DNA from: an uncultured Eubacteriales bacterium
GTDB lineage: Bacteria > Bacillota > Clostridia > Saccharofermentanales > Saccharofermentanaceae
Length of the DNA stretch: 64,000 bases
Direction of reading: 5' to 3'
Assembly (NCBI GenBank): GCA_900314745.1
Contig: OMWK01000005.1
Coordinates: forward strand, 12,696 to 76,695
Shown: positions 28,082 through 50,460 of the stretch, piece after piece
Numbering within the stretch: position 1 is the first letter of the stretch
How the letters are laid out: each line of letters starts with the position of its first letter
Notes under the pieces: generated by a model
Seen by the model: only the letters and a program-made list of their open reading frames with translations
Databases searched by the model: none
What the model was told of the DNA's origin: nothing
Made by a program: the position numbers and the translations under genes

Positions 28082-29317
28082 TCAGTCGAATCTCTCGTCT
28101 ATGACTCTCTTGGACTTCTTCTCGGATCTCGGGAGCAGGCCGATCTCGACAACCTTAACGATAGGTGTGAATCCGATTCTGGACTTAACTGCAGCTGCAA
28201 TCCTCTCACCGAGTTCATTGAAATCATACTCACCCGAAGTCTCGACATAGATCCTCATCGTGTCGCGGCCGTCGAGGTGTGATATGCGGATCTGATACTC
28301 GGAAGAGCACTCGGGGAATGTCTTCAGGATCTCCTCGATCTGAGCGGGGAATACATTGACGCCCTTGATCTTCATCATGTCGTCTGTTCTGCCCTTAATG
28401 ACATCGATACGGGGGAACTTAGAGCCGCACTTGCAGGGCTCGGGGATGATTCTGGACAGATCATGAGTCCTGTAACGGATAAGAGGAGCTCCCTCCTTAA
28501 CGAGAGTCGTGATAACGATCTCACCCCACTCGCCGTCCGGGAGCGGCTTCAGCGTAACAGGATCGATAATCTCAAGATAGATATAATCATCCCAGTAATG
28601 CATATACTTCTCGCCCGGGCAGTTGATGCCGATACCGGGGCCGTAGATCTCGGTAAGGCCGTAGATATCGAACAGTTCGATGCCGAGTTCATTGTGGATT
28701 CTCTCACGCATCTTATCGCCCCATCTCTCGGAACCGATGATGCCCTTCTTAAGATGGATCTTATCCTTGATACCTCTCTTCTCTATCTCTTCAGCAAGGA
28801 GCAATGCATAGGAAGATGTCGCACAAAGAACGGTGGACTTCATGTCCATCATGAACTGCAATTGCTTATCGGTATTGCCGGGTCCCATCGGAATACACAT
28901 GGCACCGAGCTTCTCGGCACCTAACTGGAATCCGATACCTGCGGTCCAAAGTCCGTATCCCGGAGTGATATGAATGCGGTCCATATTGGTGATGCCAGCC
29001 ATCTCGTAGCAGCGCTTGAACTGGATTGCCCAGTCGTCAACATCCTTGGCTGTATAGGGAATAATTACGGGAAGTCCCGTAGTTCCTGAAGAGGAATGGA
29101 TACGCACGATCTGATCCTCGGGTGCAGTCATGAGTCCCAACGGATATGCCTCACGAAGGTCGTTCTTCTCCGAGAAAGGAAGCTTCTCGAAGTCCTCTGC
29201 CGAGTTAACGCCCCTGATACCGGCTTCCTCGAGCTTCCTGCCATAGAAGCTTCCCGCCTTAACGAGCGCCTCGATCCTGCTGTTAACCTGCTCCAGTTGC
29301 TTGTCACTGATCCTCAT
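28082..29317 (-). CDS. paaK: Phenylacetate-CoA ligase family protein
   Basis: IHSSSGTTG, PGYGLWTAG, DIYGLTE, RYRTHDL, GRTDDMMKIKGVN. Confidence 0.92.
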   Translation of the reverse strand: MRISDKQLEQVNSRIEALVKAGSFYGRKLEEAGIRGVNSAEDFEKLPFSEKNDLREAYPLGLMTAPEDQIVRIHSSSGTTGLPVIIPYTAKDVDDWAIQFKRCYEMAGITNMDRIHITPGYGLWTAGIGFQLGAEKLGAMCIPMGPGNTDKQLQFMMDMKSTVLCATSSYALLLAEEIEKRGIKDKIHLKKGIIGSERWGDKMRERIHNELGIELFDIYGLTEIYGPGIGINCPGEKYMHYWDDYIYLEIIDPVTLKPLPDGEWGEIVITTLVKEGAPLIRYRTHDLSRIIPEPCKCGSKFPRIDVIKGRTDDMMKIKGVNVFPAQIEEILKTFPECSSEYQIRISHLDGRDTMRIYVETSGEYDFNELGERIAAAVKSRIGFTPIVKVVEIGLLPRSEKKSKRVIDERFD

Positions 29318-29326
29318 ATTCCCTCC

Positions 29327-29917
29327 TTAAATTGACGCATATTCCAAAGCCTTGAAGTTAAGCTCGTGGAACTGCGGTTTAACCTTCTTTACCAGTGCTT
29401 CCTTAATGTCTTCGATGCCGACTTCACCGAGGAAACCTCCCCTTGCGGCGGCACCTAAGAGCACCATGTTCATTACCTTCGCTGAACCTAAGTCTGCCAG
29501 CGCTTTATCCGTGTTGACGATAACAAGCTTGCCTATAAGTCCGCCTTCGAGGGACTTAAGATAATCCGTCATCTTGGAGCCCTCATAAGCAGAGCCCTGA
29601 AGCGCAGCAGTTACGGGCATCATCGCGCGGTCGGAAGTTATCACTGTGCCGCCTTGCTTAAGGTAGGACAAAGCACGCACTGTCTCCGCGGGTTCGAAGC
29701 CGATTATAAGATCCGCACACCCGCTTCCGATAAGAGGCGACGAACATGTTCCTATGCGGAGGTAACTTAATACACTTCCGCCCCTCTGCGCCATGCCGAT
29801 GGTCTCGGCAGATCTGACGCTTAAGCCTTTCGACATGGATGCGGCTGCAGTGAGCTTGCTCGCGAGAACAGTGCCCTGCCCTCCAACTCCGCAAAGAATG
29901 ATATTTGTTGTACTCAT
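29327..29917 (-). CDS. iorB: Indolepyruvate:ferredoxin oxidoreductase beta subunit
   Basis: GVGGQGTV, ETIGMAQRGGSV, NMVLLGA; start at ATG 29917 overlapping the iorA stop. Confidence 0.92.
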   Translation of the reverse strand: MSTTNIILCGVGGQGTVLASKLTAAASMSKGLSVRSAETIGMAQRGGSVLSYLRIGTCSSPLIGSGCADLIIGFEPAETVRALSYLKQGGTVITSDRAMMPVTAALQGSAYEGSKMTDYLKSLEGGLIGKLVIVNTDKALADLGSAKVMNMVLLGAAARGGFLGEVGIEDIKEALVKKVKPQFHELNFKALEYASI

Positions 29918-31734
29918 TCCTTCACCGCCTTTCCGATGGCATTGCAGGGGCAGACCTGCGAACACAGGCCGCACCCGTTGCAAAGAGCGGTATCAATTGC
30001 CACATGTCCGTCCTTAAGAACAACACCGGGGCAGCCGATCTCACGGATACACATCTTGCAGTCGACGCACTTATCGAGGTCGACCTCATAAGGCGTCTCG
30101 GGCTTAAACAGCACTGCGCACGGCGCCTCGAAAAGAATCGCCTTCACACCCGGCTCGTCTGCGACTTTCTTCACGACTTCCACTGCCTCATCAAGCTTGA
30201 AAGGATCCTGCCTTACCACAGTCTCCACGCCGATTCCCCTAAAGATGCTCTCGATGTCGATCTTATCCGTGAACTCTCCCATCATAGTATGGCCTGTTCC
30301 CGGGTGAGGCTGGTGACCCGTCATGGCCGTAGTCGAGTTATCGAGAACTATGAGCGTCATGTCAGCCTGGTTATAAACTGCATTTACGACACCCGTTATT
30401 GCAGAAGCAAAGAATGTTGAATCGCCTACAAACGCAAAGCACTTGGTATCGGGCTTAACCCTGCCGACTCCCTGTGCGATGCCAAGACCCGCACCCATGC
30501 AAAGACAGGTATCAACCATATCAAGAGGCATGGCGTTACCCAGAGTGTAGCAGCCGATGTCGCCTGCAAATATCGTCTCCTTGCCCTTCATGGCCTTCTT
30601 GACGGCATAGAAGGAAGCTCTGTGGGGACATCCCGCACAAAGCACCGGAGGACGCACCGGAAGCTCAGGAGTATTCATTTTCTCACAGGAAGGGAGTTCC
30701 CATCCCATAAAGTCACTTATGTATTTCTGTACAAGATCCGGCATGTTCTCGCCTGAACGGGCGACATGTCCCGTCAGCTTACCCGTAATCTTCACGTCAA
30801 TATGATTCTTACCGCACAACTGAAGAACATGTCTCTCGATATAAGGGTCAAGTTCCTCAATTACCAGGACTTCATCAACGTCATTAAGGAAAGTCGACAC
30901 CAGCTTATCAGGGAACGGAAACGGCGTGCTTATCTTAAGAAGAGACGGCACCTGTTTCTTATCTGACCGGGCTTTTGTAACTATATCCAAAGCATTGGCA
31001 AAGGATATTCCCTGCGAGATAACACCATAAGTTGTATTACCCTCGATGAATGTATTAGGTGACGAGCGGTAAGAGAACTCCGCCGACAGCTTATCATTGC
31101 GCTCCTCTATCTTCGCATGATTGGCGTATGAAAGCTTTGGAAATATTACCCAGCGCTTGGAATCCTTAACGAATCCCTCAGGCCTGTGGTCCTCATACTC
31201 CGCATAATCACGCACGTCGATGCTCTGGTAGGAGTGGCACACTCGCGTAGTGGGACGCATAAAAACGGGAGTACCGTACTTCTCGGAAAGCTCGAAAGCT
31301 TCGAAGATCATCTCATAAGCTTCCTTCGCATCTGAAGGATCGAAGCACGGAACCTTGGAATACTCTGCAAATGTCCTGGTGTCCTGTTCTGTCTGTGATG
31401 AGATCGGACCGGGGTCATCTGCAACAAGGACTACCATTCCTCCCTTTACGCCTACATACTCAAGGCTCATCAAAGGATCGGATGCGACATTAAGTCCCAC
31501 CTGCTTCATGGTAACCAGGGTTCTCGCTCCCGAATATGCTGCACCTGCGGCAACCTCCAGAGCGGCCTTCTCGTTGACGGACCACTCAACATATATGCTT
31601 CCGTCATTCTCTTTGGCTATAGTCTCGAGGACTTCAGTCGAAGGAGTACCCGGGTACCCTGCGACGAGATTGACACCTGCCGCTATGCAGGCCCTGCCTA
31701 TCGCCTCGTTTCCCATCAGAAATTCTTTATGCAT
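29914..31734 (-). CDS. iorA: Indolepyruvate:ferredoxin oxidoreductase alpha subunit
   Basis: GYPGTPSTE, MKQVGLNVA, LCAGCPHR, GDIGCY, GDSTF, two C-terminal 4Fe-4S motifs. Confidence 0.95.
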   Translation of the reverse strand: MHKEFLMGNEAIGRACIAAGVNLVAGYPGTPSTEVLETIAKENDGSIYVEWSVNEKAALEVAAGAAYSGARTLVTMKQVGLNVASDPLMSLEYVGVKGGMVVLVADDPGPISSQTEQDTRTFAEYSKVPCFDPSDAKEAYEMIFEAFELSEKYGTPVFMRPTTRVCHSYQSIDVRDYAEYEDHRPEGFVKDSKRWVIFPKLSYANHAKIEERNDKLSAEFSYRSSPNTFIEGNTTYGVISQGISFANALDIVTKARSDKKQVPSLLKISTPFPFPDKLVSTFLNDVDEVLVIEELDPYIERHVLQLCGKNHIDVKITGKLTGHVARSGENMPDLVQKYISDFMGWELPSCEKMNTPELPVRPPVLCAGCPHRASFYAVKKAMKGKETIFAGDIGCYTLGNAMPLDMVDTCLCMGAGLGIAQGVGRVKPDTKCFAFVGDSTFFASAITGVVNAVYNQADMTLIVLDNSTTAMTGHQPHPGTGHTMMGEFTDKIDIESIFRGIGVETVVRQDPFKLDEAVEVVKKVADEPGVKAILFEAPCAVLFKPETPYEVDLDKCVDCKMCIREIGCPGVVLKDGHVAIDTALCNGCGLCSQVCPCNAIGKAVKE

Positions 31735-37644: not shown

Positions 37645-39318
37645 TCACATAACGACCACTATATGGTCATATTCGCCCTCAGGCACTTCAACAGAAGAAG
37701 GATCATCGGAAATAACAAACCCGATGTTCTTGCTTCTGAAGAAAGTCTCCATCATATCCACCTTACAAAAATCCGGGAAGAAATATCCGTCCCAGATCCT
37801 CTGGTTCCAGATAACAAGATAGCTGTCCTCTGTATACTCCGTGTTCTCCTCAGAAGATGCCGCGAGAGCATTCCATGCATCGTCATACCATAAGTCACTG
37901 GGGATATAATCATCACCGCCCACGAGATAATCGTAATTAAATAGCACATGACCTCCGAGCACCGCGATAACAAGATACAAAGCTACAGCAAGGTAGAAGC
38001 ACTTCATCTTCTCCGAAGTAAACTTGTTAAGCATATAATAGCAGAAGATTCCTCCCACCAGTATCGCAATCGTTCCCATATAGCGGTAGAAGCTTCCGAA
38101 CCCCTCTGCCTCCTCTACACTCATCGAGAAGATGTACATCAGGATCATAAAGAAAACGTATACCCAATAAGTTATGAACACATACTTAAACCAGAACTTA
38201 GGCTCCTTCTTCTTCTCGAAGATAATGAGAAATACAAATCCGAAGAAAACTCCCCACACGAGCATTACCTGAGCGTATTCGCTCATAAAGGATACGGACT
38301 GTACAATCACACCCTTAATGACATATTGTATAAGATCTGGTGACTTATCGTTAAGAAGGTCAAGAAATCTCTCAACTGACGACGCCTGTCTACTTTGGCT
38401 GATATCAGTGTATATGAACGAATTTCTTATCCTGTACAGCAAATTCAGCACCACGGGAATAGCAGCAACGAGGATCGTTCTTAATGCTTTCCCCTTCTTC
38501 AATGCTATGAACAGTGCAAGTGCTGCAGCTAGAAAGAACAATCCGGAGAACTTCACCATAACAAGAAAAGACAGTATCAGAATAAGCGACACGACATCCT
38601 TCTTCTCATCAAACTTCGTCTCAGCGATGAACACGATACATCCAAGCGCCACCATTCCAAGAGTTCCGTCTACAGCCAAAGACAAGGTGCTTACAGCAAC
38701 TGAAGTAAGAAACACGAACGATGCTGCGGCACATATACCAAGAAGAACCTTCTTAAGCTTATCCTTACACTTCGCAAGCACAGCGAAAAGCACACTTACC
38801 GATGCCATATTCAATGCAGCCTGAGCCGTAAAACAATTAGCGATACTAAAACCGAACGACTTAGTCACTATATATATCCAAGTCGCGGTTCCGGGGGGAT
38901 ATGTGCTGAATCCGATTTCAGGTGTAACGGGATAAGAATCATCATAAAAAATAACCTTACACATTCTGTACCAGTGACTGAAATCATCAGGATTTGAAAG
39001 TCCCCTGTCTCTTGTTATGAAGCGTATCCAGGTCACGCCAAGGATCATGAATACAATCACCGGATCAGCAAAAGTTAAAGGTATCTTATTAATCCTATCC
39101 TTCCCTGTAAAAAAAAGTGATACGGGAATCATCAAACATCCTGTAGTAATGAAGATCCAATATCCGACATTAAGCACGCCGGCAACTCCCGCAAGATATA
39201 GAACTAATACCGCCGAAGATATGAACATCAATGGGAAGAAACAAGCTTTCTTTCCAAGCACGGAAGTATAAAGAATGTAAAAGCCGATTACAGCAAAGAT
39301 AAACAAGACCGACTCCAT
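37645..39318 (-). CDS. Polytopic membrane protein, GT-C-like
   Basis: About 13-14 TMs; loop motifs NPDDFSHW and TYPPG typical of GT-C-like proteins; acidic soluble C-terminus. Confidence 0.62.
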   Translation of the reverse strand: MESVLFIFAVIGFYILYTSVLGKKACFFPLMFISSAVLVLYLAGVAGVLNVGYWIFITTGCLMIPVSLFFTGKDRINKIPLTFADPVIVFMILGVTWIRFITRDRGLSNPDDFSHWYRMCKVIFYDDSYPVTPEIGFSTYPPGTATWIYIVTKSFGFSIANCFTAQAALNMASVSVLFAVLAKCKDKLKKVLLGICAAASFVFLTSVAVSTLSLAVDGTLGMVALGCIVFIAETKFDEKKDVVSLILILSFLVMVKFSGLFFLAAALALFIALKKGKALRTILVAAIPVVLNLLYRIRNSFIYTDISQSRQASSVERFLDLLNDKSPDLIQYVIKGVIVQSVSFMSEYAQVMLVWGVFFGFVFLIIFEKKKEPKFWFKYVFITYWVYVFFMILMYIFSMSVEEAEGFGSFYRYMGTIAILVGGIFCYYMLNKFTSEKMKCFYLAVALYLVIAVLGGHVLFNYDYLVGGDDYIPSDLWYDDAWNALAASSEENTEYTEDSYLVIWNQRIWDGYFFPDFCKVDMMETFFRSKNIGFVISDDPSSVEVPEGEYDHIVVVM

Positions 39319-39405: not shown

Positions 39406-40503
39406 TTATGAGAATAAGTAGTACAGCAATCCTAATGCAACGATCGCGAGGATGATCGCGATGATGACTCTGAAAGCGGATACAGGTGACTTTCCTGCGA
39501 TCCTGCCTGTCTGTCCGTTAACAACGAAGTTATAGATCGTTCCGTTGAACTTGAAATTCGAGATCCAGATAGGAGCAAGAAGATACTTGAAAGTAATCTT
39601 GTCATAAGAAGTCGCGAGCTTAACATCCTTAACGCGGTCAGCCTTATATCTCGCCCTGACGTTCTCTCTAATGTGCTGCTCGAGCTTCGCCCTGATCTGA
39701 CTTTGTGCAATATTCCATCCGTCATCAAGACCCAGTGAATATCTCTCGGCAGCGAAGCCTGCAATGAACTGGGGATCGTAATCACGGAGCTTAGAGAAGT
39801 CAAAGCTCGATACTGTCTTGATGTTACTGTCATTCGTCTTCGTGCTGGCATAGACAACTTCATCGTCGATGAACTCATCGTGAACACCGCTGCACTTATA
39901 CCATCTGGTCTTCGTGTTGCCGTCCTTATCCTTGTAATCCTTGCCGTAGCTTGCGGAATAGGATGATGTCGTCTGTGAATCGAATGTCCAGTAAGGAAGG
40001 TAGATGCCGTGGAACTCCTTGGCTTCGCAGCTCTTCTTCGCCTTGGAAGGAGCAAAGAGCTTCTTGCCGAGCCAACTCTTGAAGAGCTCTGCCGCCCTCT
40101 CTCTTGATATCTCGAAAGGAACGATGCCGCCGGGAGCCATTACATCCTCGTCATCATCTACGGGCATTACGTTAGTGGATCCGCAGAAAGGACAGGTCGA
40201 AGCAGTCTCGGTCATGTCGTACATTGCGGAACCGCCGCAGTTCTTACAGGTGATATTCTTCTTCTTTGCTCCCCAGTCCTTGCTTGTACGAAGTTTGGCG
40301 GAATTGAAGTCAATCTCCTGTGTAGCAGTTCCTGCCTCATCAGGCTTAGGCAGTTCCTTGTGATAACCGCAGTATTCGCAGGTCATCGACAGTGTTGCCG
40401 GGTCATAAGCTACAGTAGCGCCGCAATTGGGACATTTCTTATCGGTAATGTCTTCGGTAGCACCCTGTACGATCTCTTCAGGTAAATTCTCATTCTCTGC
40501 CAT
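39406..40503 (-). CDS. YdjG-like zinc-ribbon protein with C-terminal TM
   Basis: CPNCG...CEYCG and CKNCG...CPFCGS ribbons; GIYLPYWTFD, LLAPIW, VNGQTG; GGAGAG RBS before ATG 40503. Confidence 0.78.
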   Translation of the reverse strand: MAENENLPEEIVQGATEDITDKKCPNCGATVAYDPATLSMTCEYCGYHKELPKPDEAGTATQEIDFNSAKLRTSKDWGAKKKNITCKNCGGSAMYDMTETASTCPFCGSTNVMPVDDDEDVMAPGGIVPFEISRERAAELFKSWLGKKLFAPSKAKKSCEAKEFHGIYLPYWTFDSQTTSSYSASYGKDYKDKDGNTKTRWYKCSGVHDEFIDDEVVYASTKTNDSNIKTVSSFDFSKLRDYDPQFIAGFAAERYSLGLDDGWNIAQSQIRAKLEQHIRENVRARYKADRVKDVKLATSYDKITFKYLLAPIWISNFKFNGTIYNFVVNGQTGRIAGKSPVSAFRVIIAIILAIVALGLLYYLFS

Positions 40504-40579
40504 GGTCCCTCTCCTCATATAAAAATCATTACCGAAATTATAACATATTCAAATTATGTTGATACTATTAGGGCAACAA

Positions 40580-41991: not shown

Positions 41992-43925
41992 CAGGCATTC
42001 TCCTTGGTGTAATTAAGAAGGCCTCCTGCGAGGAGCATATCCTTCTGTCTGTCTGAGATCACGAGCTCAGTCTCAAAGGAATAACCCTGAGTCTTGTTTG
42101 TGATCGTAACAGTCTTGCCGGAAGCGGCAGCCTCAACCTGCTCTCTTGCATTCTCGATAACGAGCTCATCGAGCATGTTGATCTTATCGTAGTCAGCAGC
42201 ATCCTTGAATGTTAAAGGAAGGATACCGTTGTTGATGAGGTTTGCCATGTGGATTCTAGCGAAAGAGAGTGCGATTACACCCTTAACGCCAAGCTGCAAA
42301 GGTGCAAGAGCAGCGTGCTCTCTGGAAGAACCCTGACCGTAGTTCTGTCCGCCGATGATGAATCCGCCGTTGTTCTCCTTCGCTCTTGCCGGGAACTGCT
42401 CATCACAGGGTGTGAGACAGTAGTCTGCAAGGTAAGGGATGTTGGATCTGAACGGCAGAAGCTTCGCATTGGAAGGCATGATGTGGTCTGTCGTGATGTT
42501 GTCCTCAACCTTTATGAGTGTCTTGCCCTCAACTGTATCAGCGAGCTTATGGTGTGCAGGGAAAGGCTTGATGTTAGGTCCTCTTACTACCTCTACATCC
42601 TCAGGTGTAGCAGAAGGCATGATAACCATGTTGTCGTTAACCTTGAATGCATCAGGCATTGTTACTACCGGCGGCTCACCGAAGTCAGCAGGGTTTGTAA
42701 CTACACCTGTGATAGCGGCAACAGCAGCAACCTCAGGGCTTACAAGATAGATGGAAGCGGACTTCGTTCCGGATCTTCCGTAGAAGTTTCTGTTATTTGT
42801 TCTTAAGGATACAGCGTTAGTCTTAGGAGACTGACCCATACCGATACAGGGACCGCATCCGCACTCGATGATTCTTGCACCTGCTTCGATCATGTCGGCA
42901 AGAGCACCCATCTCAGCGAGCATGTTGAATACCTGCTTGGATCCGGGAGCGATAACGAGTGAAACATCAGGATGAACTGTGTGACCCTTCAGGATCTTAG
43001 CAACCTTGAGCATGTCGTAAAGTGAAGAGTTTGTGCAGGAACCGATGCAGCACTGGTCAACCTTAAGACCCTCGATCTCCTTAACTGTTACAACCTGGTC
43101 AGGCATGTGAGGCTTAGCAACGAGAGGTACGAGTTTGGAAAGATCAATCTCGATCTCCTCATCGTAAACTGCATCCTCGTCAGCCTTGAGCTCTGTCCAT
43201 ACCTCTTCTCTTCCCTGTGCCTTGAGGAAAGCCTTAGTAACCTCATCAGAAGGGAAAACGGATGTTGTAGCACCGAGCTCGGCACCCATGTTTGTGATAG
43301 TTGCTCTCTCGGGAACTGTGAGAGATGCAAGTCCGTCACCTGCATACTCGACGATCTTGCCTACACCGCCCTTAACGGACATGATGCGGAGAACCTCGAG
43401 GATGATATCCTTGGCTGTTGTCCAGGGAGCGAGCTTATTCTTCAATGTAACTCTTACCATCTTGGGCATTGTGATGTAGTAGGGACCGCCGCCCATTGCC
43501 ACTGCAACGTCAAGTCCGCCTGCACCGATGGCGAGCATTCCGATACCGCCGCATGTAGGTGTGTGAGAGTCAGAACCGAGAAGTGTCTGACCCGGAACAC
43601 CGAATCTCTCGATGTGAACCTGGTGGCAAACACCGTTACCGGGACGGCTGAATCTGATGCCGTGCTTATTCGCTACTGTCTGGATGTACTTGTGGTCATC
43701 AGCATTCTCGAAGCCGGACTGAAGCATGTTGTGATCGATGTAAGCAACAGAGAGCTTAGTCTTAACCTGATCGATGCCCAGAGCCTCGAACTGGAGGTAA
43801 GCCATGGTACCCGTAGAATCCTGTGTAAGTGTCTGGTCGATTCGAAGAGCGATCTCCTCGCCAACCTTCATCTCACCGGAAAGTAGATGGTCCTTAATGA
43901 TCTTCTGCGAAATTGTTAAACCCAT
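41991..43925 (-). CDS. acnA: Aconitate hydratase (short, about 640-aa type)
   Basis: TQDSTG, GSDSHT, IGSCTN, CGCGPCIG, TTDHI, GQGSSREHAA. Confidence 0.94.
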   Translation of the reverse strand: MGLTISQKIIKDHLLSGEMKVGEEIALRIDQTLTQDSTGTMAYLQFEALGIDQVKTKLSVAYIDHNMLQSGFENADDHKYIQTVANKHGIRFSRPGNGVCHQVHIERFGVPGQTLLGSDSHTPTCGGIGMLAIGAGGLDVAVAMGGGPYYITMPKMVRVTLKNKLAPWTTAKDIILEVLRIMSVKGGVGKIVEYAGDGLASLTVPERATITNMGAELGATTSVFPSDEVTKAFLKAQGREEVWTELKADEDAVYDEEIEIDLSKLVPLVAKPHMPDQVVTVKEIEGLKVDQCCIGSCTNSSLYDMLKVAKILKGHTVHPDVSLVIAPGSKQVFNMLAEMGALADMIEAGARIIECGCGPCIGMGQSPKTNAVSLRTNNRNFYGRSGTKSASIYLVSPEVAAVAAITGVVTNPADFGEPPVVTMPDAFKVNDNMVIMPSATPEDVEVVRGPNIKPFPAHHKLADTVEGKTLIKVEDNITTDHIMPSNAKLLPFRSNIPYLADYCLTPCDEQFPARAKENNGGFIIGGQNYGQGSSREHAALAPLQLGVKGVIALSFARIHMANLINNGILPLTFKDAADYDKINMLDELVIENAREQVEAAASGKTVTITNKTQGYSFETELVISDRQKDMLLAGGLLNYTKENA

Positions 43926-43982
43926 GAAAGTTCCTCCATGTATATAAATAATACGTACGCATTAAATTATGCCACGAAGAGC

Positions 43983-44012
43983 ATTATATTGGTCGCGGCT
44001 TGATGTTGTCAA
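43983..44012 (-). promoter_or_regulatory. Sigma-A promoter of acn-gltA
   Basis: TTGACA-18 nt-TATAAT. Confidence 0.75.
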
Positions 44013-44030
44013 TTTTAATAAGGATTTTCG

Positions 44031-44039
44031 GATAATCAG
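44031..44039 (+). repeat. Left copy of 9-bp direct repeat GATAATCAG flanking the adenylation/kinase-MFS cassette
   Basis: Identical 9-mer at 47558-47566, in the 27-nt gap after trmH. Confidence 0.5.
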
Positions 44040-44055
44040 GCAAAAGATTGGACCT

Positions 44056-45270
44056 TCACTTTGCCTGCTGTCTGCTTATGGCCGAATTACAAACGAATAT
44101 ATTCGCCAATGAAATGCAGAGCATTAACAGCATGACATAAACGATGCCCCACTTCGTAAGCAAGCTTCCTACAGCGGAAAGGAAGAGCGCACCTGCTTTT
44201 TTCGCTGTGTTTAATGCAACCAGGCTTCCCTGCTGTGCTTCGACCTCGTCAACCTTAAGAGAGATATTCTGCACAAGAGTAATAAACGGATCACGTGCAA
44301 ATGCAATCATAAAATAACCTGCGATCATGATCGCTCTCTTCCCTGTGTTTCCTGTAATCCACGGAAGGATCTGCAGGATCAGACCAGCCGTAAGCATTAT
44401 TGACACCAGAACAGCAGCACGGTCCTTGAAAGTTGAATAGGTCCTGCTCATGAGGATATTCGATAAAAATCTGAGCAGATAAACCAAGGAAGATATGAGT
44501 CCGAGAAGCCAGATAATATGCCCAGGTTCATGATCATTAAGCAAAGTCTGGAAGTTAAGCCGCGCATATGTAAGTCCTGTTCCCGTTATCGCCGTAAACA
44601 TGGCAAAAGATATGAGAAGCAGTATACCGAACGAGCTCATAGACGCACGTCTTCTCTTCTTTTCCAGATTTCTGATACAAATCTCATTTGAAGAAGTATC
44701 CCCACGTGTGATAAACACCGCACATACCACACCCGCAGAGCTTAAGCCCATGCAGGCGAACATAGGAAGATAAGCATTAATCTCAAAAAGAGAGCCGCAA
44801 AGCAAAGATGTGATCATCATGACTATTGAAGTTATACCGCTTGCATCAGATTGATATGTGACATACATATCTTCCTTGTACTCGCTCACAAGTTTACGCT
44901 TCAACACAGCTGTTCCTATAGCACTCAGTGTGTGAGCAATACACTTTATAAACCCTCCTATAAGAACAACAATGAACCCGGGAGCGAACGTAATGCAGGC
45001 AGAAGACAGCACGAAGCAGACACTTCCCGTGATTACAGCAGTTTTGTTGCCGACGCGGTTTATCCACTTAAGAAGAGGGTACTGAATAATCAGAGAGAAA
45101 CCGAGCGAAAGGAATGTCAGCCATGATACAGCCGCCACCGACAGGCCTTTCACTTCAGTAAGGAACATCGCATCATAGACAATGAAAAACAAAAGGTCCG
45201 TCTCTAATGCAGTATATCCGAGATACCACCGGAAAAAACTGTTACTGTAACGAGCTCTGATGCTTCCCAT
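44056..45270 (-). CDS. MFS transporter
   Basis: About 12 TMs; degenerate motif A (KWINRVGNK); overlaps the upstream fusion gene by 29 nt. Confidence 0.85.
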   Translation of the reverse strand: MGSIRARYSNSFFRWYLGYTALETDLLFFIVYDAMFLTEVKGLSVAAVSWLTFLSLGFSLIIQYPLLKWINRVGNKTAVITGSVCFVLSSACITFAPGFIVVLIGGFIKCIAHTLSAIGTAVLKRKLVSEYKEDMYVTYQSDASGITSIVMMITSLLCGSLFEINAYLPMFACMGLSSAGVVCAVFITRGDTSSNEICIRNLEKKRRRASMSSFGILLLISFAMFTAITGTGLTYARLNFQTLLNDHEPGHIIWLLGLISSLVYLLRFLSNILMSRTYSTFKDRAAVLVSIMLTAGLILQILPWITGNTGKRAIMIAGYFMIAFARDPFITLVQNISLKVDEVEAQQGSLVALNTAKKAGALFLSAVGSLLTKWGIVYVMLLMLCISLANIFVCNSAISRQQAK

Positions 45271-47542
45271 TTCCGTCCTGCCTTAAGTGTCCGTTCCAGT
45301 ATTCCAAAGATCTCCGTCTGGCTTCTTTCAATTCCTCATCCGTAAACACACCCGGAAGAATAACAGAAGCTATACAGATCCTGGCTGCGTGTATTCCTCT
45401 GATCCTCTCCTTCATGTCAGACAACACTTTATCTTCAATATCCGGATAGTAGGACTTAAGATAAACGTCAAACAAAGCTCCGGCTTTTAACTTATCGACT
45501 CCTAACTTCGCGACGCATTGTTCATCGGTCATGAATGAAGGAAGGAAAACATAATGCGAATACATACAAAGATGATCAAACACCGGGTCCCCCTTACCGC
45601 TTATAACAAGATCGATGAACTTTATCCCGTCATTAAATATCATCGCATTTCCGGGGTGACAGTCACCATGAATAAAATGATCCGAATCAGGTATCGATGC
45701 TATGATATCCGAGATTTTCTGAATCTCCTCCTCATTGCAGTAAGCGTGATCTATTTGCTGTGCACATGATAACGATATGCCCTTAAGATCCTGAATGCTC
45801 TCATCACTCATGCTGATCTTATGCATACTCTTCACCGCTCCTGCGAAAAGCTTAATCAGTTCCTGACAATTTCCTGTACCACACCTTATGGCTTCCTCAA
45901 TTACAGTACCACCAAGCCTGTCGAACATGACACCATACCGGGTATCCGAACGGACCATCTCATACGCCTTAGGAACAGGCAGCCCCTTCCCGTATGCTAT
46001 CCGTGTATGTTCAAGTTCCAGCCTGATACGCTCATACGGAACCGACTGTTTATACAGCTTGATAACCTTGTCACTGCCGATCGCATATACTATGGCCTTT
46101 CTTCCCTGTCCAATAATCTGAAGATCGGGTGATTCCTGTTTTCTGAATTCATCCCAGCTTCCTTCGGGAGGATAGAGACTTCTTTTATCAGTCTTTCCGG
46201 TCTCGAGCAAAGGAAACTCTTCCAAATGAATATAGTTTGTAGGTATCATGTATTCAGGCAGAATATCCAGAAGTTTCTGTCTCATCATGACCTCATCAAC
46301 AATTATGTCACCGGTATAGAAAACAATTATGGATGAGATATCTTTATAAACAAATCCCCTGACTACAAGATTCTTGATGCCGCTTACCTGTCTTACCGCG
46401 TTTCCCACCTCATCAGGCTCAATTCTGTAACCGTTAATCTTGAACATCTCATCGATTCTTCCGCATATAACAAGATCACCGTCAGAAGTCATCATTCCGG
46501 CATCACCTGAATGAATAATTGTCCCGTTTATTTTCTTCCTGGTCAGTTCAGGAAGATTCAGATATCCCCTGACAAAAGGATCGCGGAAACACAACTCTCC
46601 GGTATACCCTGCCGGAACCTCTTTACCGTTCTCATCAAGGATAAGGATTTCAACATCCGACTGTGGCTTACCGACAGGTGCCGGAGTCTGCGGATGTGTC
46701 AGTTCCTTCAGCGTCAGAAGACATCCGGACTCAGTTGATGCATAGCAGTTGATACATCTTGTTCCATCAAGATACAAACCATCCGCAGGTTCACTTGACA
46801 GAACACATGTCTTAAGACTCTTTTTGAGAGGGAGCAGTTTACGGAGCCTGGAAGGTGTAAGATACCCGCAGTTAACATCATTTCTGCAAAGATATTCGGC
46901 AAAACTTTCCGAGTCATCACAATACTCATAAGGAACGATCGCCACAGCGTTTCCGAACACACTTGAGAATCCGACGATAATAGGCATTGATACAAAGCTT
47001 ATCGGACTCATGACAGAATATGTATCCTCAGGAGCGAGAATCGGAACTCCATTCAGGATTGCTGATTTCCATGCATTAATAAGCGTTCCGTATTCATGCA
47101 TGACACCTTTGGGATTTCCGGTAGTTCCCGATGTGTAAGCTATATAGCAAAGGCTGTGAAGATCGGAAGTCTCATATCCGTCTATAGGTTCCGTTCTTTT
47201 TATCTCTTCCCATAAAGACTCATCAACAAACAGTTTACAGTTACAGTCTTTCCTTATGAAATCAGTTCTTTTATCGTTACCTGTCTCTGCTAAAACAAAT
47301 GCAGCCCCTGCCCTGATAGTCCCGATCATGCAGGCATAAAGATCTGTGCCTCTGGGAAGACAGTACATTACGACGTCCTCGGTACCTATCCTTCTCGATT
47401 TAAGCCAGGCATAGATTCTTCCGGTGACAGTCCAGTATTCCTTGAAAGTTAACCTGTTCTCAGATTCATACTTAATAGCTGTCCTGTCCGGCGTATTCAG
47501 CACATGCTCATAAAGAGTATCGAGTATTGTATTATCAACCAT
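45242..47542 (-). CDS. Adenylation (AMP-binding, ANL/NRPS-like) domain fused to an aminoglycoside-phosphotransferase/choline-kinase-like domain
   Basis: A3 YTSGTTGNPKG, A5 YASTE, A7 SGDAG, A8 GRIDEMFKINGYRIE, A10 PLLETGKTDK; then GQGRKAIVY, VIKLY, HGDCHPGN, FIDL; AGGAGG RBS. Confidence 0.88.
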   Translation of the reverse strand: MVDNTILDTLYEHVLNTPDRTAIKYESENRLTFKEYWTVTGRIYAWLKSRRIGTEDVVMYCLPRGTDLYACMIGTIRAGAAFVLAETGNDKRTDFIRKDCNCKLFVDESLWEEIKRTEPIDGYETSDLHSLCYIAYTSGTTGNPKGVMHEYGTLINAWKSAILNGVPILAPEDTYSVMSPISFVSMPIIVGFSSVFGNAVAIVPYEYCDDSESFAEYLCRNDVNCGYLTPSRLRKLLPLKKSLKTCVLSSEPADGLYLDGTRCINCYASTESGCLLTLKELTHPQTPAPVGKPQSDVEILILDENGKEVPAGYTGELCFRDPFVRGYLNLPELTRKKINGTIIHSGDAGMMTSDGDLVICGRIDEMFKINGYRIEPDEVGNAVRQVSGIKNLVVRGFVYKDISSIIVFYTGDIIVDEVMMRQKLLDILPEYMIPTNYIHLEEFPLLETGKTDKRSLYPPEGSWDEFRKQESPDLQIIGQGRKAIVYAIGSDKVIKLYKQSVPYERIRLELEHTRIAYGKGLPVPKAYEMVRSDTRYGVMFDRLGGTVIEEAIRCGTGNCQELIKLFAGAVKSMHKISMSDESIQDLKGISLSCAQQIDHAYCNEEEIQKISDIIASIPDSDHFIHGDCHPGNAMIFNDGIKFIDLVISGKGDPVFDHLCMYSHYVFLPSFMTDEQCVAKLGVDKLKAGALFDVYLKSYYPDIEDKVLSDMKERIRGIHAARICIASVILPGVFTDEELKEARRRSLEYWNGHLRQDGNGKHQSSLQ

Positions 47543-47557
47543 ACCGTCCTCCTGTAC

Positions 47558-47566
47558 GATAATCAG
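47558..47566 (+). repeat. Right copy of 9-bp direct repeat GATAATCAG
   Basis: See 44031-44039. Confidence 0.5.
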
Positions 47567-47569
47567 CCG

Positions 47570-48352
47570 TTAATCTCTAAGTTCCTGAAGGACATAGCCG
47601 ATTATCGAAGCGGCGGAAGCTGCATTAAGCGATTCTGCCTTACCCTGCATCCTTATCTTCACCTTGATATCGCACTGATCTATGGTGGAAGCCTTAAGTC
47701 CCGCGCCCTCATTTCCTATGAAATACGCGGCCGGCAGATCAATCTTCGCCTGACTTAAGTCATCGCCGTGAAGCTCTGCCGCGATGACCTTAACTCCCTT
47801 GCCGTGAAGTGCGCTTATCATATCATTTGAATTTTCAAAGGATGTAATATTCACTCTCCAGATGGAACCCATCGAAGCACGGATGACCTTGTCGTTAAAA
47901 GGATCCACAGTGTTCTTGGTGATAAGAATCCCTGTGAAATCAAAGGCATCCGCGATCCTTATCATGGTTCCGAGGTTGCCCGGGTCCTGTATATCCTCAA
48001 GGCACATGAAGATATCCTTCCCGTCCCCTCTTAAAACCACATCTCCCGAAGAAACTGGTCGTTTTGCAACAAGCGCCATCCCCTGAGGGTGTACGGTCTG
48101 CGATATCTTCTTAAAACACGTCTCGCTTAAAATAAGGCACTCGCATGAGAACCGGTCCGCATGCGCGATTGCCCACGAAGCGTGTTCTTCATCAGCAACC
48201 ACAATTGAAGGCACAACGCCGCATCCGAGCGCGTCCTCACAGCCTCTCACACCCTCAATGAATACGACGCCCTCACGGCGTGCATTCTTACCGTCATGAA
48301 GCGAAGCCAAATACTTTACTTTTGGATTGTCTTTGCTTGTGATGATATCCAC
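47570..48352 (-). CDS. TrmH/SpoU family RNA 2'-O-methyltransferase
   Basis: ITSKDNP, EDIQDPGNLGTMIR, GNEGAG, ESLNAASA. Confidence 0.93.
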   Translation of the reverse strand: MDIITSKDNPKVKYLASLHDGKNARREGVVFIEGVRGCEDALGCGVVPSIVVADEEHASWAIAHADRFSCECLILSETCFKKISQTVHPQGMALVAKRPVSSGDVVLRGDGKDIFMCLEDIQDPGNLGTMIRIADAFDFTGILITKNTVDPFNDKVIRASMGSIWRVNITSFENSNDMISALHGKGVKVIAAELHGDDLSQAKIDLPAAYFIGNEGAGLKASTIDQCDIKVKIRMQGKAESLNAASAASIIGYVLQELRD

Positions 48353-48363
48353 GAATTCACCCG

Positions 48364-50460
48364 TTACTGATCATAAACAACAAAGAGCGCACTTAATGAA
48401 GGAACTCCAGCCTGCATAGGACCGAAGCTTATTCCCTTTATTACGGCGTCTGAACTTAGTGACACGGCAGGAGCCTCTACGGGTTCCAGCTTAAAATCGC
48501 GCCCGCTGTCGTCCAGCTTGAAGTATGCGCCCTTGTGTCCCCTGTTGATAAAAACCACAACCTTGCGTGCACCCTGGGAAGGAAGCACGGTATTGCCGAA
48601 TGCATCCCTGCTCTCATTATCAAGGAACCTCTCGAAAACGATTACGTCTTCGGAAGTGTAAAGCGTCCTGTAAAAACCGGTGCGGAGGACCTGATTCTCT
48701 ACACGAAGCTTAGCAAGCTTTCTGCAGTATTCAAGCTGCTCCACGCCTTCACGGGGAACCTTGCCCCACGGATACGTCCTTCTGTTGAACGGATCCTTAT
48801 ATCCGTCCATGAGAATCTCATCGCCGTAATAAACACAGGGAGCTCCGATGTATCCGATCTGAATTGCGTAACCTAACTTGCAAAGGTCAGCACACCTTGA
48901 AGCCTCGGACTCGGGTACACATATCTTCTGCTGGTCTTCCTTGTTATCGGTATCCCACGGCTTGCTCATCATTGTATAAGCGCGCGGAACATCGTGTGAA
49001 GACAGAAGGTTCATTATGCAGTAGTAGCTCTGCGCGGGATATCTCTCGCGGAAGCCTTCCAGACGTGCGTTGAACACCTTTGCCGATACATATCCCTGAA
49101 GGAACTCGAGCACTGTGGTCCTGAACGTATAACCCATTACAGAATCATGCGTGGAACCGAGCATAAAGTCTCTGTATGAACCATAGGAGCACTTATTGCT
49201 CGCGTCCTCCCATACTTCACCGACGAGCATGCCTTCCCCGCCGGTCTTAGCCTTAATGACATCCCTCATCTGTCTGATGAAAGAATCAGGAAGCTCATCA
49301 GATACATCTAGTCGAAGTCCTGACGCACCTCTTCCAATCCAAGTGTCTACGACACCGCCGTCGCCGAAGATGAACTTTCTGTAGGAAAGATCATTCTCAT
49401 CGACATTGGGAAGATCGGGGAAACCCCACCACGAATCGTAAACGGTGTACCCGTCCTCATTCTTATAGAAGTTGTACCAGGATCTGTACGGACTCTCCAC
49501 GCCCTTCTCGTACGCTTCAAAAGCACCCGTGCCCTCATACCTTCCGAACTTGTTGAAGTAACGGGAATCAGCTCCGGTATGCGAGAACACGCCGTCGAGA
49601 ATGAGTCTTATGCCCTTCTCCCTGCACGCGTTCTGAAGCACAGCGAAAGCCTCGTTGCCGCCAAGCATCGGATCCACATTATGGTAATCGGCAGTATCGT
49701 ATCTGTGAGACGATCTTGCCTCGAATATCGGATTAAGATAGATGATATCTATACCGAGAGACTTAATATAATCGAGATGCTCGGCTATTCCCTTAAGAGA
49801 ACCGCCGAAGAAGTCACAGGCAAGATAACCCGTAGACGGCTTGCCCTTGATATCAACATCCTCGTACCAGTCGTCGTGATATACGCGCTCCTCCCTTGGG
49901 GATGCATTCATCATCCGCTCAACAGTGAACTCCTTATCACGCGCAAATCTGTCCGGGAAGATCTGATAGATCAGAGCGCCCTTCATATGATCAGGAGTCT
50001 TGAAATCCCTTCGGTATGCGGTTATCTGCCATGCATACGGATACTTATCCTCATCGGCGCCGATTCTCGGAGGTTCATGATAAAGCTTGCCCGAACCGTC
50101 CTCGGTGTCGCCCTCAAGGACATAGTACTTGGTGTGGATCTCAGATACCGGCTCATGGTCCTCGTCCTCGGAAGGGACCATCTCAGCGATCCTGAATCTG
50201 AACCAATAGAAAACGAGACCGGGCTCATGCGGGAGCATAAGCCTTGTCTCGTATCTTGTTGTTTCTGTGTCTGTTCCTTCAGACTTTACTTCATGCATCG
50301 GCTCTTCATGATACGAGAAGCCGTAAAGTCCGTAAGAATAACAAAGTGTAACTTCCGAACTGTCAGAAGAAGCGTCGAATCTGATAGTTATCTCAGTATC
50401 AGTCGGCTGCGCACCATAAGGTGACCTGTACAGAGGAAGTCTGGACGCATGAAAGAACAT
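48364..50460 (-). CDS. GH13 neopullulanase/amylopullulanase-type glycogen-degrading enzyme
   Basis: YQIFPDRF, IYLNPIF, HRYDT, ILDGVFSH, catalytic LRLDVSDE / VGEVWED / SSHD. Confidence 0.92.
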   Translation of the reverse strand: MFFHASRLPLYRSPYGAQPTDTEITIRFDASSDSSEVTLCYSYGLYGFSYHEEPMHEVKSEGTDTETTRYETRLMLPHEPGLVFYWFRFRIAEMVPSEDEDHEPVSEIHTKYYVLEGDTEDGSGKLYHEPPRIGADEDKYPYAWQITAYRRDFKTPDHMKGALIYQIFPDRFARDKEFTVERMMNASPREERVYHDDWYEDVDIKGKPSTGYLACDFFGGSLKGIAEHLDYIKSLGIDIIYLNPIFEARSSHRYDTADYHNVDPMLGGNEAFAVLQNACREKGIRLILDGVFSHTGADSRYFNKFGRYEGTGAFEAYEKGVESPYRSWYNFYKNEDGYTVYDSWWGFPDLPNVDENDLSYRKFIFGDGGVVDTWIGRGASGLRLDVSDELPDSFIRQMRDVIKAKTGGEGMLVGEVWEDASNKCSYGSYRDFMLGSTHDSVMGYTFRTTVLEFLQGYVSAKVFNARLEGFRERYPAQSYYCIMNLLSSHDVPRAYTMMSKPWDTDNKEDQQKICVPESEASRCADLCKLGYAIQIGYIGAPCVYYGDEILMDGYKDPFNRRTYPWGKVPREGVEQLEYCRKLAKLRVENQVLRTGFYRTLYTSEDVIVFERFLDNESRDAFGNTVLPSQGARKVVVFINRGHKGAYFKLDDSGRDFKLEPVEAPAVSLSSDAVIKGISFGPMQAGVPSLSALFVVYDQ

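Follow-up and report, generated by a model that had tools for sequence, protein, structure and literature searches.

In this study, we analysed a 64,000-nt stretch of contig OMWK01000005.1 (assembly GCA_900314745.1, positions 12,696 to 76,695; hereafter the window) from an uncultured Eubacteriales bacterium and found in it a two-gene cassette. A nonribosomal peptide synthetase (NRPS)-type adenylation (A) domain is fused directly to an APH/eukaryotic-like kinase, and the fusion gene overlaps a gene for a transporter of the major facilitator superfamily (MFS). While the parts of the fusion are familiar, the combination is uncharacterised, widespread and mobile. We tentatively propose that the cassette is a self-contained, horizontally mobile unit that acylates a small molecule without a carrier, phosphorylates it and then exports it, a reading that we place ahead of its rivals although we would not call it probable.

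Architecture of the fusion enzyme

The fusion gene occupies 45242..47542 on the minus strand (stop codon included) and encodes 766 aa, as delimited by the open reading frame (ORF) list, the translation and the Pfam matches to AMP-binding and APH. The protein comprises an NRPS-type A domain (residues 1-457; 46172..47542, minus strand), a short conserved linker (residues 458-474, PPEGSW...; 46121..46171, minus strand) that leads from the A10 motif straight into the kinase, and a domain of the APH/eukaryotic-like kinase fold (residues 475-766; 45245..46120, minus strand). These boundaries rest on Pfam, NCBIfam, the match to LgrA and the conservation of motifs and pocket for the A domain, on conservation in 37 homologues and a negative carrier-domain search for the linker, and on Pfam, invariant residues, AlphaFold2 and Foldseek for the kinase. 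The 404-aa MFS transporter gene (44056..45270, minus strand; assigned from Pfam MFS_1, adjacency in 20 genome loci, AlphaFold2 and Foldseek) overlaps the fusion gene by 29 nt (45242..45270, minus strand). The overlap, which follows from the coordinates and is spanned by a metatranscriptome contig, suggests translational coupling of the two genes.

Pfam finds AMP-binding at residues 12-327 of the fusion protein (E = 1.8e-44). Among NCBIfam profiles, TIGR01733 (amino-acid adenylation domain) matches the N-terminal half best (184.8 bits, under its cut-off of 317.4), and the best PDB match of the A domain is to the A domains of LgrA (full-sequence E = 4.9e-84 over two stretches), with TycA and GrsA also among the best. 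The translation contains A3 YIAYTSGTTGNPKGV (YTSGTTGNPKG), A5 NCYASTE, A7 HSGDAG, A8 GRIDEMFKINGYRIEP, A9 LPEYMIP and A10 GKTDKR (K450), so that both core motifs and profile match place the domain among the ANL/NRPS A domains. In an alignment of 37 fusion homologues sharing 46-58% identity, A3, the A5 residues N265, Y267, A268, S269 and E271, the A8 residues G361, R362, K368, G371 and R373, and K450 and D452 of A10 are invariant, and the A7 Asp is conserved in at least 90%.

The substrate pocket is not that of an amino acid-activating domain. The A4 motif reads SFVSM, and alignment with LgrA puts Val184 at the position of Asp235 of amino-acid A domains. Every fusion has Val at the Asp235 position and Ser in place of the A5 Pro (Ser269; YASTE vs YGPTE), so that neither of the usual contacts to the alpha-amino group is present. 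The ten specificity positions, read by anchoring on the A4, A5 and A10 motifs, are V184, S185, I188, Y227, V247, S249, C266, C274, L275 and K450 (V-S-I-Y-V-S-C-C-L-K) in the window protein and V-[S/A]-I-Y-[I/V]-S-[C/T/A]-C-L-K over the fusions; such conservation of the pocket points to a single substrate or a small group of substrates. A 2024 review reports that A domains for alpha-hydroxy and alpha-keto acids have a small or aliphatic residue in place of D235, Val in the case of McyG, and that in the keto-acid domain StsA another residue stands where the A5 Pro is conserved (PMC11253843). The fusion resembles the StsA/cereulide-type, enniatin EnSyn A1 and McyG domains in both features, namely a small or aliphatic residue at Asp235 and replacement of the A5 Pro (PMC11253843); unlike it, these are modules of multi-domain synthetases with carrier domains, and in overall sequence the fusion A domain is no closer to keto- or hydroxy-acid A domains than to ordinary amino-acid A domains. 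Given that Val at Asp235 and Ser at the A5 Pro occur in all fusions, it is a safe conclusion from the pocket residues that the predicted substrate is a carboxylic acid without an alpha-amino group. We can reasonably guess at an alpha-keto, alpha-hydroxy or aryl-alkanoic acid, but this is not a result. Both Fibrobacter loci among the relatives (L031, 6587-7882, and L032, 2665-3993, both on the minus strand) carry a class I/II aminotransferase gene upstream of and divergent from the fusion, a neighbour that fits a 2-oxo-acid substrate and is confined to this single genus.

The kinase domain matches Pfam APH (PF01636) at residues 475-665 (E = 2.9e-14; 53.9 bits vs a cut-off of 23.2), and its translation contains the Gly-loop IGQGRKAIVY, Lys495 (VIKL), HGDCHPGN (D627, N632) and FIDL (D644). 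Residues K495, E509, D627, N632 and D644 are invariant in the 37 homologues. AlphaFold2 modelled the C-terminal 310 residues with a pLDDT of 91 and a pTM of 0.87; motif residues and bilobal fold together assign the domain to the APH/eukaryotic-like kinases. The best Foldseek matches of the model are APH(3'), APH(2'') and MTR kinase (TM-score 0.53-0.59, with a probability of 1.00 to APH structures), which share with it the fold and the catalytic Lys, Asp, Asn and Asp at only 14-17% identity. In the model the kinase fold is certain, whereas the solved structures are too distant for a substrate to be transferred from them. The best curated profile, TIGR02172, scores 77.6-80.5 bits vs a cut-off of 228.2, which leaves the domain outside that family, and it also falls outside the NCBIfam aminoglycoside/macrolide phosphotransferase equivalogs (APH(3'), 24 bits vs a cut-off of 205; others lower). 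The invariance of the catalytic residues argues for phosphotransfer, though not for its target, and to judge from their motifs both domains look catalytically competent.

These results bear out much of what the earlier note had read from the letters of the window: the 766-aa fusion with all of its listed motifs and the 29-nt overlap are there, the A4 region does lack the Asp that binds alpha-amino groups, and its views that the substrate would be a non-alpha-amino carboxylate and that both domains are intact now agree with residues conserved throughout the family.

Absence of carrier and condensation functions

Pfam shows only two domains in the fusion, and no carrier plus condensation or release domain was found in cis or adjacent, so that it does not form a canonical NRPS module. 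Custom hidden Markov models (HMMs) of the carrier (T) and condensation (C) domains, made from the nearest relatives, gave no match at E ≤ 10 in any window ORF of at least 40 aa, and a search of 39 fusion loci spanning at least six phyla likewise turned up no T or C domain within 8-10 kb. As a positive control, the T-domain HMM gave 41 matches in related loci. The Pfam families PP-binding, Condensation and Thioesterase were not found in 30 window proteins, some small window ORFs lying outside that scan. Among the 37 homologues, linker residue W463 does not vary, and P458, E460 and G461 hardly do. Since the linker is short and A10 runs straight into the kinase, a carrier domain would not fit between them; a cryptic one, considered as a candidate, was ruled out by the linker length of about 17 residues and the negative T-domain HMM.

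That neither a carrier domain nor a carrier gene accompanies the enzyme points to direct acyl transfer to a small molecule. The ANL amide-bond synthetases McbA, NovL and CouL join an adenylated acid to a free amine without a carrier (PMC6282839). As in the mechanism proposed for the fusion, a non-amino carboxylic acid is adenylated and passed to a small nucleophile in one active site; the likeness drawn here is one of proposed mechanism, and these are enzymes of actinomycete secondary-metabolite pathways (PMC6282839).

Pairing with efflux transporters

The MFS protein matches Pfam MFS_1 (43.7 bits; cut-off 33.4), and its AlphaFold2 model (pLDDT 80.5) has a pattern of long helices consistent with a 12-transmembrane-helix (TM) MFS, which together place it in the superfamily. 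The best Foldseek matches of the model are FLVCR1/2 (choline/ethanolamine), NorA, VMAT2 and MdfA, generic matches at 13-15% identity with a TM-score of about 0.7 to FLVCR, NorA and MdfA; a PDB sequence search gave no match. Membership of the drug:H+ antiporter subfamilies DHA1/2 was not supported, as there were no NCBIfam matches and no GP-containing motif C (GxxxGPxxGG) in the TM5 region of the translation.

Pump partners were counted in 36 full-length fusion genome loci, 34 of which extend past the gene and are therefore informative. An MFS of the window type (42-54% identity) adjoins the fusion in 20 of the 34, directly downstream in 19 and upstream in one (Bifidobacterium panos), and it also stands beside the fusion on two further metagenome contigs. 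Junctions between fusion and MFS genes in the related loci are as a rule overlaps or gaps of a few nucleotides. In nine of the 34 loci the downstream overlapping position is taken by a MatE-family protein of 560-640 aa that is not homologous to the MFS; NCBIfam groups it with the MATE efflux transporters, and its best curated matches are multidrug pumps. The replacement of the MFS by an unrelated pump family, one known only for export, at the same coupled position is our strongest argument that the job of the transporter is efflux. The link to an MFS, suspected from a single locus in the earlier note, is thus stronger than that note could tell.

Besides the pump, all-against-all clustering of neighbouring ORFs revealed no conserved gene, regulator or small carrier-like ORF. 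An Rfam search of 17 related loci found tRNAs only and of window positions 43000-49000 nothing, so that no riboswitch or leader RNA was seen ahead of the cassette. The MFS family is small (38 matches, none under 43% identity), and its divergence parallels that of the enzyme (43-54% identity); on these comparisons it looks like a dedicated, co-diverging partner of the fusion.

Several of the MATE efflux proteins end in a domain of about 120 aa with weak similarity to the anti-sigma-factor-type HATPase_c_2 (custom HMM E values from 1e-8 to 3e-3; rated 'weak' in precomputed Pfam). Proteins with such a tail, all recognised by the custom HMM, are encoded at L060 10307-12070, L020 3588-5513, L024 3192-4883, L084 7537-9267 and L085 7661-9391; a pump fused to a partner-switching kinase domain would be unusual. 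In two spirochaete loci (L029, 4586-5284; L030, 10295-11892) a 232-aa ORF without a Pfam match, and no pump, stands after the fusion. An alkaline-phosphatase-superfamily protein (Metalloenzyme/Phosphodiest) comes next in L030 and could be a phosphatase partner for a phosphorylated product, while the L029 contig ends too early to tell.

Distribution, horizontal spread and expression

Among 5.8 billion proteins searched, about 68 clusters at 90% identity have the same two-domain architecture (750-880 aa, 46-58% identical to the query); no extra domains were found in the longer homologues of 817-882 aa. A fusion 99% identical to that of the window is present in the metagenome-assembled genome (MAG) Clostridiales bacterium RGIG8863 from water deer omasum, and besides this the best 80 of 433 matches in species-representative genomes contain at least 35 full-length fusion loci. 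Their hosts include Butyrivibrio, Blautia, Ruminococcus, Christensenella, Mogibacterium and Acidaminococcaceae (Negativicutes), as well as B. panos, Gastranaerophilales/'Cyanobacteria' (Melainabacteria), Succinivibrio, Spirochaetaceae/Sphaerochaetaceae and Fibrobacter. Nearly all are rumen or gut MAGs, the sole cultured isolate seen being B. panos DSM 109963. Identity of about 50% over at least six phyla indicates horizontal spread. The composition of the cassette is consistent with horizontal acquisition: essentially no 3.5-kb span of the window (mean 0.475, SD 0.014) has a lower GC content than its 0.439, and the GC content at third codon positions is 0.44-0.47, against 0.53-0.56 for the glycogen, SpoU, aconitase and citrate-synthase genes on its flanks. 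One metagenome fusion locus adjoins integrase and recombinase genes. No full-length cassette match was found among the 72,556 plasmids of PLSDB.

Public names for the fusion homologues, where there are any, are the generic 'AMP-binding protein', 'phosphotransferase' and 'TIGR02172 family'. We found no name or description of the architecture in Pfam, NCBIfam, PADLOC, public annotations or a searchable full-text literature of 8.3 million papers, in line with the earlier note, which did not recognise it as a characterised system. PADLOC gave no match for the fusion, the MFS or the related STAS-APH, A-T-C and MATE proteins described here, which does not support a place among anti-phage defence systems. 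The word 'orphan' in that note does not hold, since the fusion belongs to a large cross-phylum family that is sister to three-domain NRPS-like enzymes. Its finding of no carrier, condensation or thioesterase domain in the window was upheld by both the custom HMMs and Pfam. None of the outcomes that it had named as fatal to its idea appeared, be it homologues that are fragments of larger NRPS genes with a carrier encoded elsewhere, a lack of MFS linkage or a catalytically dead domain.

The cassette genes are transcribed. Sequences near-identical to the cassette are present in cattle, sheep and goat gut metagenomes, and in rumen metatranscriptomes from cattle and sheep RNA contigs cover parts of both genes at a depth similar to that of the neighbouring aconitase gene, contig depth being a poor measure of expression level. 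One RNA contig (47310-47608) bridges the junction of the SpoU and fusion genes and another (45138-45413) the fusion/MFS overlap; because of these junction-spanning contigs, fusion and MFS are probably transcribed together, with read-through from upstream. The fusion start codon lies 27 nt past the stop of the upstream SpoU-type methyltransferase gene, and the promoter scan revealed no promoter-like site in this gap; a ribosome-binding site, AGGAGG, is seen in the sequence 5 nt 5′ of the fusion ATG (47548..47553, minus strand). A sigma-70-type promoter of perfect consensus (TTGACA-18-TATAAT; 43983..44012, minus strand; 12/12 matches in the promoter scan, and read in the sequence) sits just past the MFS stop, within a gap of 130 nt that precedes the aconitase/citrate synthase genes. 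It would drive those genes and would mark the 3′ edge of the cassette. At window position 45184, one rumen metatranscriptome contig (run X28) has a 1-nt insertion in the MFS gene, due to strain variation or assembly error.

Evolutionary relatives

The next clade of A domains consists of A-T-C tri-domain proteins of about 995 aa from gut Clostridia (37-41% identity; e.g., L048 7998-10985), which have the carrier serine in GGDSL and an intact condensation motif, HHxxxDG. Like the fusion, they have Val at 235, have lost the A5 Pro, share the first four pocket positions (V-A/S-I-F/Y) and are frequently followed by a MATE pump; unlike it, they carry T and C domains in place of the kinase, and their deeper pocket residues are G, I/V, F and A rather than S, C/T, C and L. 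Their loci include MATE pumps in 11, cytoplasmic type-B carboxylesterases in 13, and a SpoIIE phosphatase with HATPase_c_2 in 13. A STAS-only gene is present in at least 14, often directly upstream, and a STAS-APH or HD-STAS-APH protein in two. We noted here an uncharacterised locus type of gut Clostridia, composed of a STAS-only gene, the A-T-C gene, a type-B carboxylesterase and/or MATE gene, and HATPase_c_2 plus SpoIIE genes (L048 5891-14559, L078 4687-12682, L071 5094-12365, L043 7043-12325 and about 35 more among L042-L083). From its gene content it looks like an NRPS-like enzyme wired to partner-switching control.

For the kinase, an exhaustive HMMER scan of 1.84 billion representatives gave 2717 matches; a word-index search with the kinase domain alone had given four fragments. 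The matches begin with a few stand-alone proteins of about 300 aa (33-44% identity), followed by a very large number of proteins of about 390 aa whose kinase domain starts at about residue 100. All of the latter that were sampled are STAS-APH proteins, one of them STAS-APH-HATPase_c_2. They share 24-30% identity with the fusion kinase and retain all of the catalytic K/D/N/D. The STAS-APH family comprises hundreds of 50%-identity clusters, with variants bearing HD_4, HATPase_c_2 or thymidylate-kinase domains (P0136-P0273 of the representative library; L078 6571-7752; L071 7128-8858), and we know of no characterised member. The TIGR02172/STAS-APH proteins stand alone or are joined to STAS, HD or HATPase_c_2, whereas the fusion kinase is joined to an A domain.

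There are also truncated relatives of 546-561 aa that end straight after the kinase N-lobe and have a degenerate Gly-loop (L039 7914-9599, L040 7968-9608, L084 5876-7540, L085 6001-7683); in those of 554-560 aa the A domain is 53-58% identical. In L084 and L085 an overlapping MATE gene with the weak HATPase_c_2 C-terminal domain comes next, while no pump adjoins the gene in L039 and L040. The same weak tail occurs on MATE partners of full-length fusions. By this comparison, the conserved core is the A domain plus an exporter, with the kinase an addition that is apparently intact in most lineages and lost in some. The evolution of the whole group is interwoven with that of partner-switching regulators.

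Proposed function and alternative explanations

In the order of steps that we infer, the A domain would use ATP to turn a carboxylic acid without an alpha-amino group, likeliest an alpha-keto, alpha-hydroxy or aryl-alkanoic acid, into an acyl-adenylate, and would hand the acyl group straight to a small-molecule amine or hydroxyl, as McbA and NovL do. The kinase, at the carrier-domain position, would then spend a second ATP on phosphorylating a hydroxyl of the acceptor or product, as a priming, masking or self-protection step, and the coupled MFS, or in other genomes the MATE pump, would export the product. The A-T-C relatives are predicted biosynthetic acyl-transfer enzymes, which would give the fusion a biosynthetic ancestry. 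It is these sister enzymes, together with the exporter swap, that favour making and exporting a compound over detoxifying one.

Several points weigh against this proposal. No family member has an established substrate, product or phenotype, we assume that NRPS-type A domains of this clade can transfer the acyl group directly, and a carrier protein could be encoded elsewhere in the genome. No pump adjoins the fusion in five of the 34 informative loci, and as the direction of MFS transport is not readable from sequence, outward transport is presumed. The pairing of truncated relatives with MATE pumps indicates that the kinase step is dispensable in some lineages. Moreover, the STAS fusions in the nearest large clade of the kinase and the HATPase_c_2 tails of the MATE partners hint at regulatory, non-metabolic phosphorylation.

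A bolder version of the proposal, which we consider doubtful, is that the cassette represents a new class of minimal carrier-free biosynthetic systems, in which a kinase-bound acceptor replaces the phosphopantetheine arm. The secreted product would be an alpha-keto, alpha-hydroxy or aryl acid in the form of a phosphorylated acyl conjugate, acting among the anaerobes of rumen and gut as a signal or antimicrobial. The cassette would then be a streamlined mobile offshoot of the STAS/A-T-C/carboxylesterase/MATE-HATPase_c_2/SpoIIE system, with metabolite export wired to partner-switching signalling.

The most serious rival is detoxification or resistance, whereby a toxic natural carboxylic acid or antibiotic encountered in the gut would enter the cell, be inactivated by adenylation/conjugation and/or phosphorylation and then pumped out. 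A unit of one enzyme and one pump suits this idea, as do its spread across phyla within one habitat type, its GC content below that of the flanks and the integrase/recombinase neighbours of one metagenome locus; the kinase has antibiotic kinases as its structural neighbours, the bifunctional AAC(6')-APH(2'') among them, the MATE partner is closest to multidrug pumps, and the MFS resembles NorA and MdfA. However, we know of no resistance mechanism with an NRPS-type A domain, and neither a riboswitch nor a conserved regulator of the TetR, MarR or MerR type was found in the loci examined. The window cassette is apparently co-transcribed with housekeeping genes, none of the 72,556 plasmids carries it, and the NCBIfam resistance equivalogs score far under their cut-offs. 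Its closest relatives are the biosynthetic A-T-C enzymes, and the deep parallel divergence of enzyme and MFS indicates an old, dedicated pair. We regard detoxification as unlikely. The STAS-APH or STAS-APH-HATPase_c_2 fusions that make up hundreds of the nearest kinase relatives raise another possibility, that the APH-like domain is a partner-switching sensor or protein kinase controlling the A domain or the pump, while the A domain alone does the chemistry. The STAS, SpoIIE and HATPase_c_2 proteins of the A-T-C sister loci, the HATPase_c_2-like tail of the MATE partners, and the truncated relatives that keep only the kinase N-lobe and yet retain the pump would all fit. We nevertheless hold it to be quite improbable, because the window MFS has no HATPase_c_2 tail, no STAS gene was found in the window or the fusion loci, and the fold and best structural matches are those of small-molecule kinases.

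Stand-alone A domains working in trans are well known, and the fusion A domain is of the NRPS type with all of the motifs for thioester formation, while its sister enzymes use a fused T domain. It could thus belong to a dispersed NRPS-like pathway, loading a carrier encoded elsewhere (an acyl carrier protein, a DltC-like protein or the T domain of another enzyme), with the kinase tailoring the final product. But with 39 loci in at least six phyla free of a carrier or C domain within 8-10 kb and the pump the only conserved partner, with a two-gene unit crossing phyla, which the need for a specific distant partner would hinder, and with the kinase joined by a short conserved linker where a T domain would sit, such a pathway appears very improbable. 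Transport in the opposite direction, in which the transporter imports an exogenous acid or alcohol-amine from the gut and the enzyme phosphorylates and/or activates it, trapping it for assimilation, is the least probable of the readings weighed here. Pairs of transporter and ligase for aromatic and fatty acids are common, and rumen bacteria rely on exogenous phenyl-alkanoic and branched-chain acids; the MFS has the choline/ethanolamine transporters FLVCR1/2 among its best structural matches, and choline kinases belong to the kinase family. These matches are generic (13-15% identity), however, nine loci have as transporter a MATE, a family known only as exporters, and no downstream assimilation genes are conserved.

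Three more specific candidates were rejected. Resistance to polyether ionophores of the monensin type, considered for the rumen setting and the carboxylate-plus-hydroxyl chemistry, was ruled out by the deep parallel divergence and by the hosts, which include intrinsically insensitive Gram-negative lineages, reindeer and deer sources, a primate Bifidobacterium and CAG-named MAGs. Hydroxyacyl-coenzyme A (CoA) kinase pathways (LvaE/LvaA; ACAD10/11-type) consist of a CoA ligase, an APH-type kinase and an eliminating enzyme resembling acyl-CoA dehydrogenases. Since neither an ACAD-like nor any other catabolic gene is conserved beside the fusion, and CoA esters are not exported, hydroxy-acid catabolism of the LvaE/LvaA kind was ruled out. 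Lysolipid re-acylation like that of LplT-Aas was ruled out by the NRPS-type A domain, the absence of an acyltransferase domain and the replacement of the MFS by MATE.

Comparison with known systems and significance

AAC(6')-Ie/APH(2'')-Ia sets a precedent in that one polypeptide unites a kinase with an acyl-transfer activity, although its partner domain is an acetyltransferase and that of the fusion is adenylating. The mph(A)-mrx macrolide resistance operon resembles the cassette in pairing a gene for an APH-fold kinase with one for an MFS-like membrane protein. It differs in having no adenylation domain and in being plasmid- or integron-borne, and we found no sequence relation. To our knowledge, McbA, NovL and CouL are neither fused to a kinase nor coupled to a pump. 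The joining of an A domain to a kinase, the loss of the carrier and the pairing with an efflux pump have so far gone unnamed, even though both halves of the enzyme come from well-studied superfamilies.

The crossing of at least six phyla in herbivore and primate guts, together with transcription in the rumen, probably reflects a function of general value in this habitat, which would be to secrete a metabolite or to tolerate a common compound. The chemistry, once solved, could add a carrier-free acyl-transfer route for NRPS-type A domains, give the TIGR02172/STAS-APH kinase clade a function and open up the A-T-C systems linked to partner switching. The cultured carrier of the cassette, B. panos DSM 109963, makes experiments feasible.

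Other features of the window

Pfam scans of the 30 window proteins indicated housekeeping functions only, and the genes flanking the cassette are the glycogen, SpoU, aconitase and citrate-synthase genes. At 28082-31734 (minus strand), a PaaK-like ligase (AMP-binding plus AMP-binding_C_2, 411 aa) adjoins a 606-aa protein like indolepyruvate/2-oxoacid:ferredoxin oxidoreductases and a 218-aa ORF. By gene content this would be a typical aryl-keto-acid/arylacetate module, showing an organism predicted to handle aromatic 2-oxo acids; no link between this module and the cassette was found. Between the tricarboxylic acid cycle genes and an aldo/keto reductase gene lie two further minus-strand genes, at 37645-39318 for a 557-aa protein without a Pfam match and at 39406-40518 for a 370-aa protein with sub-threshold zinc-ribbon matches only.

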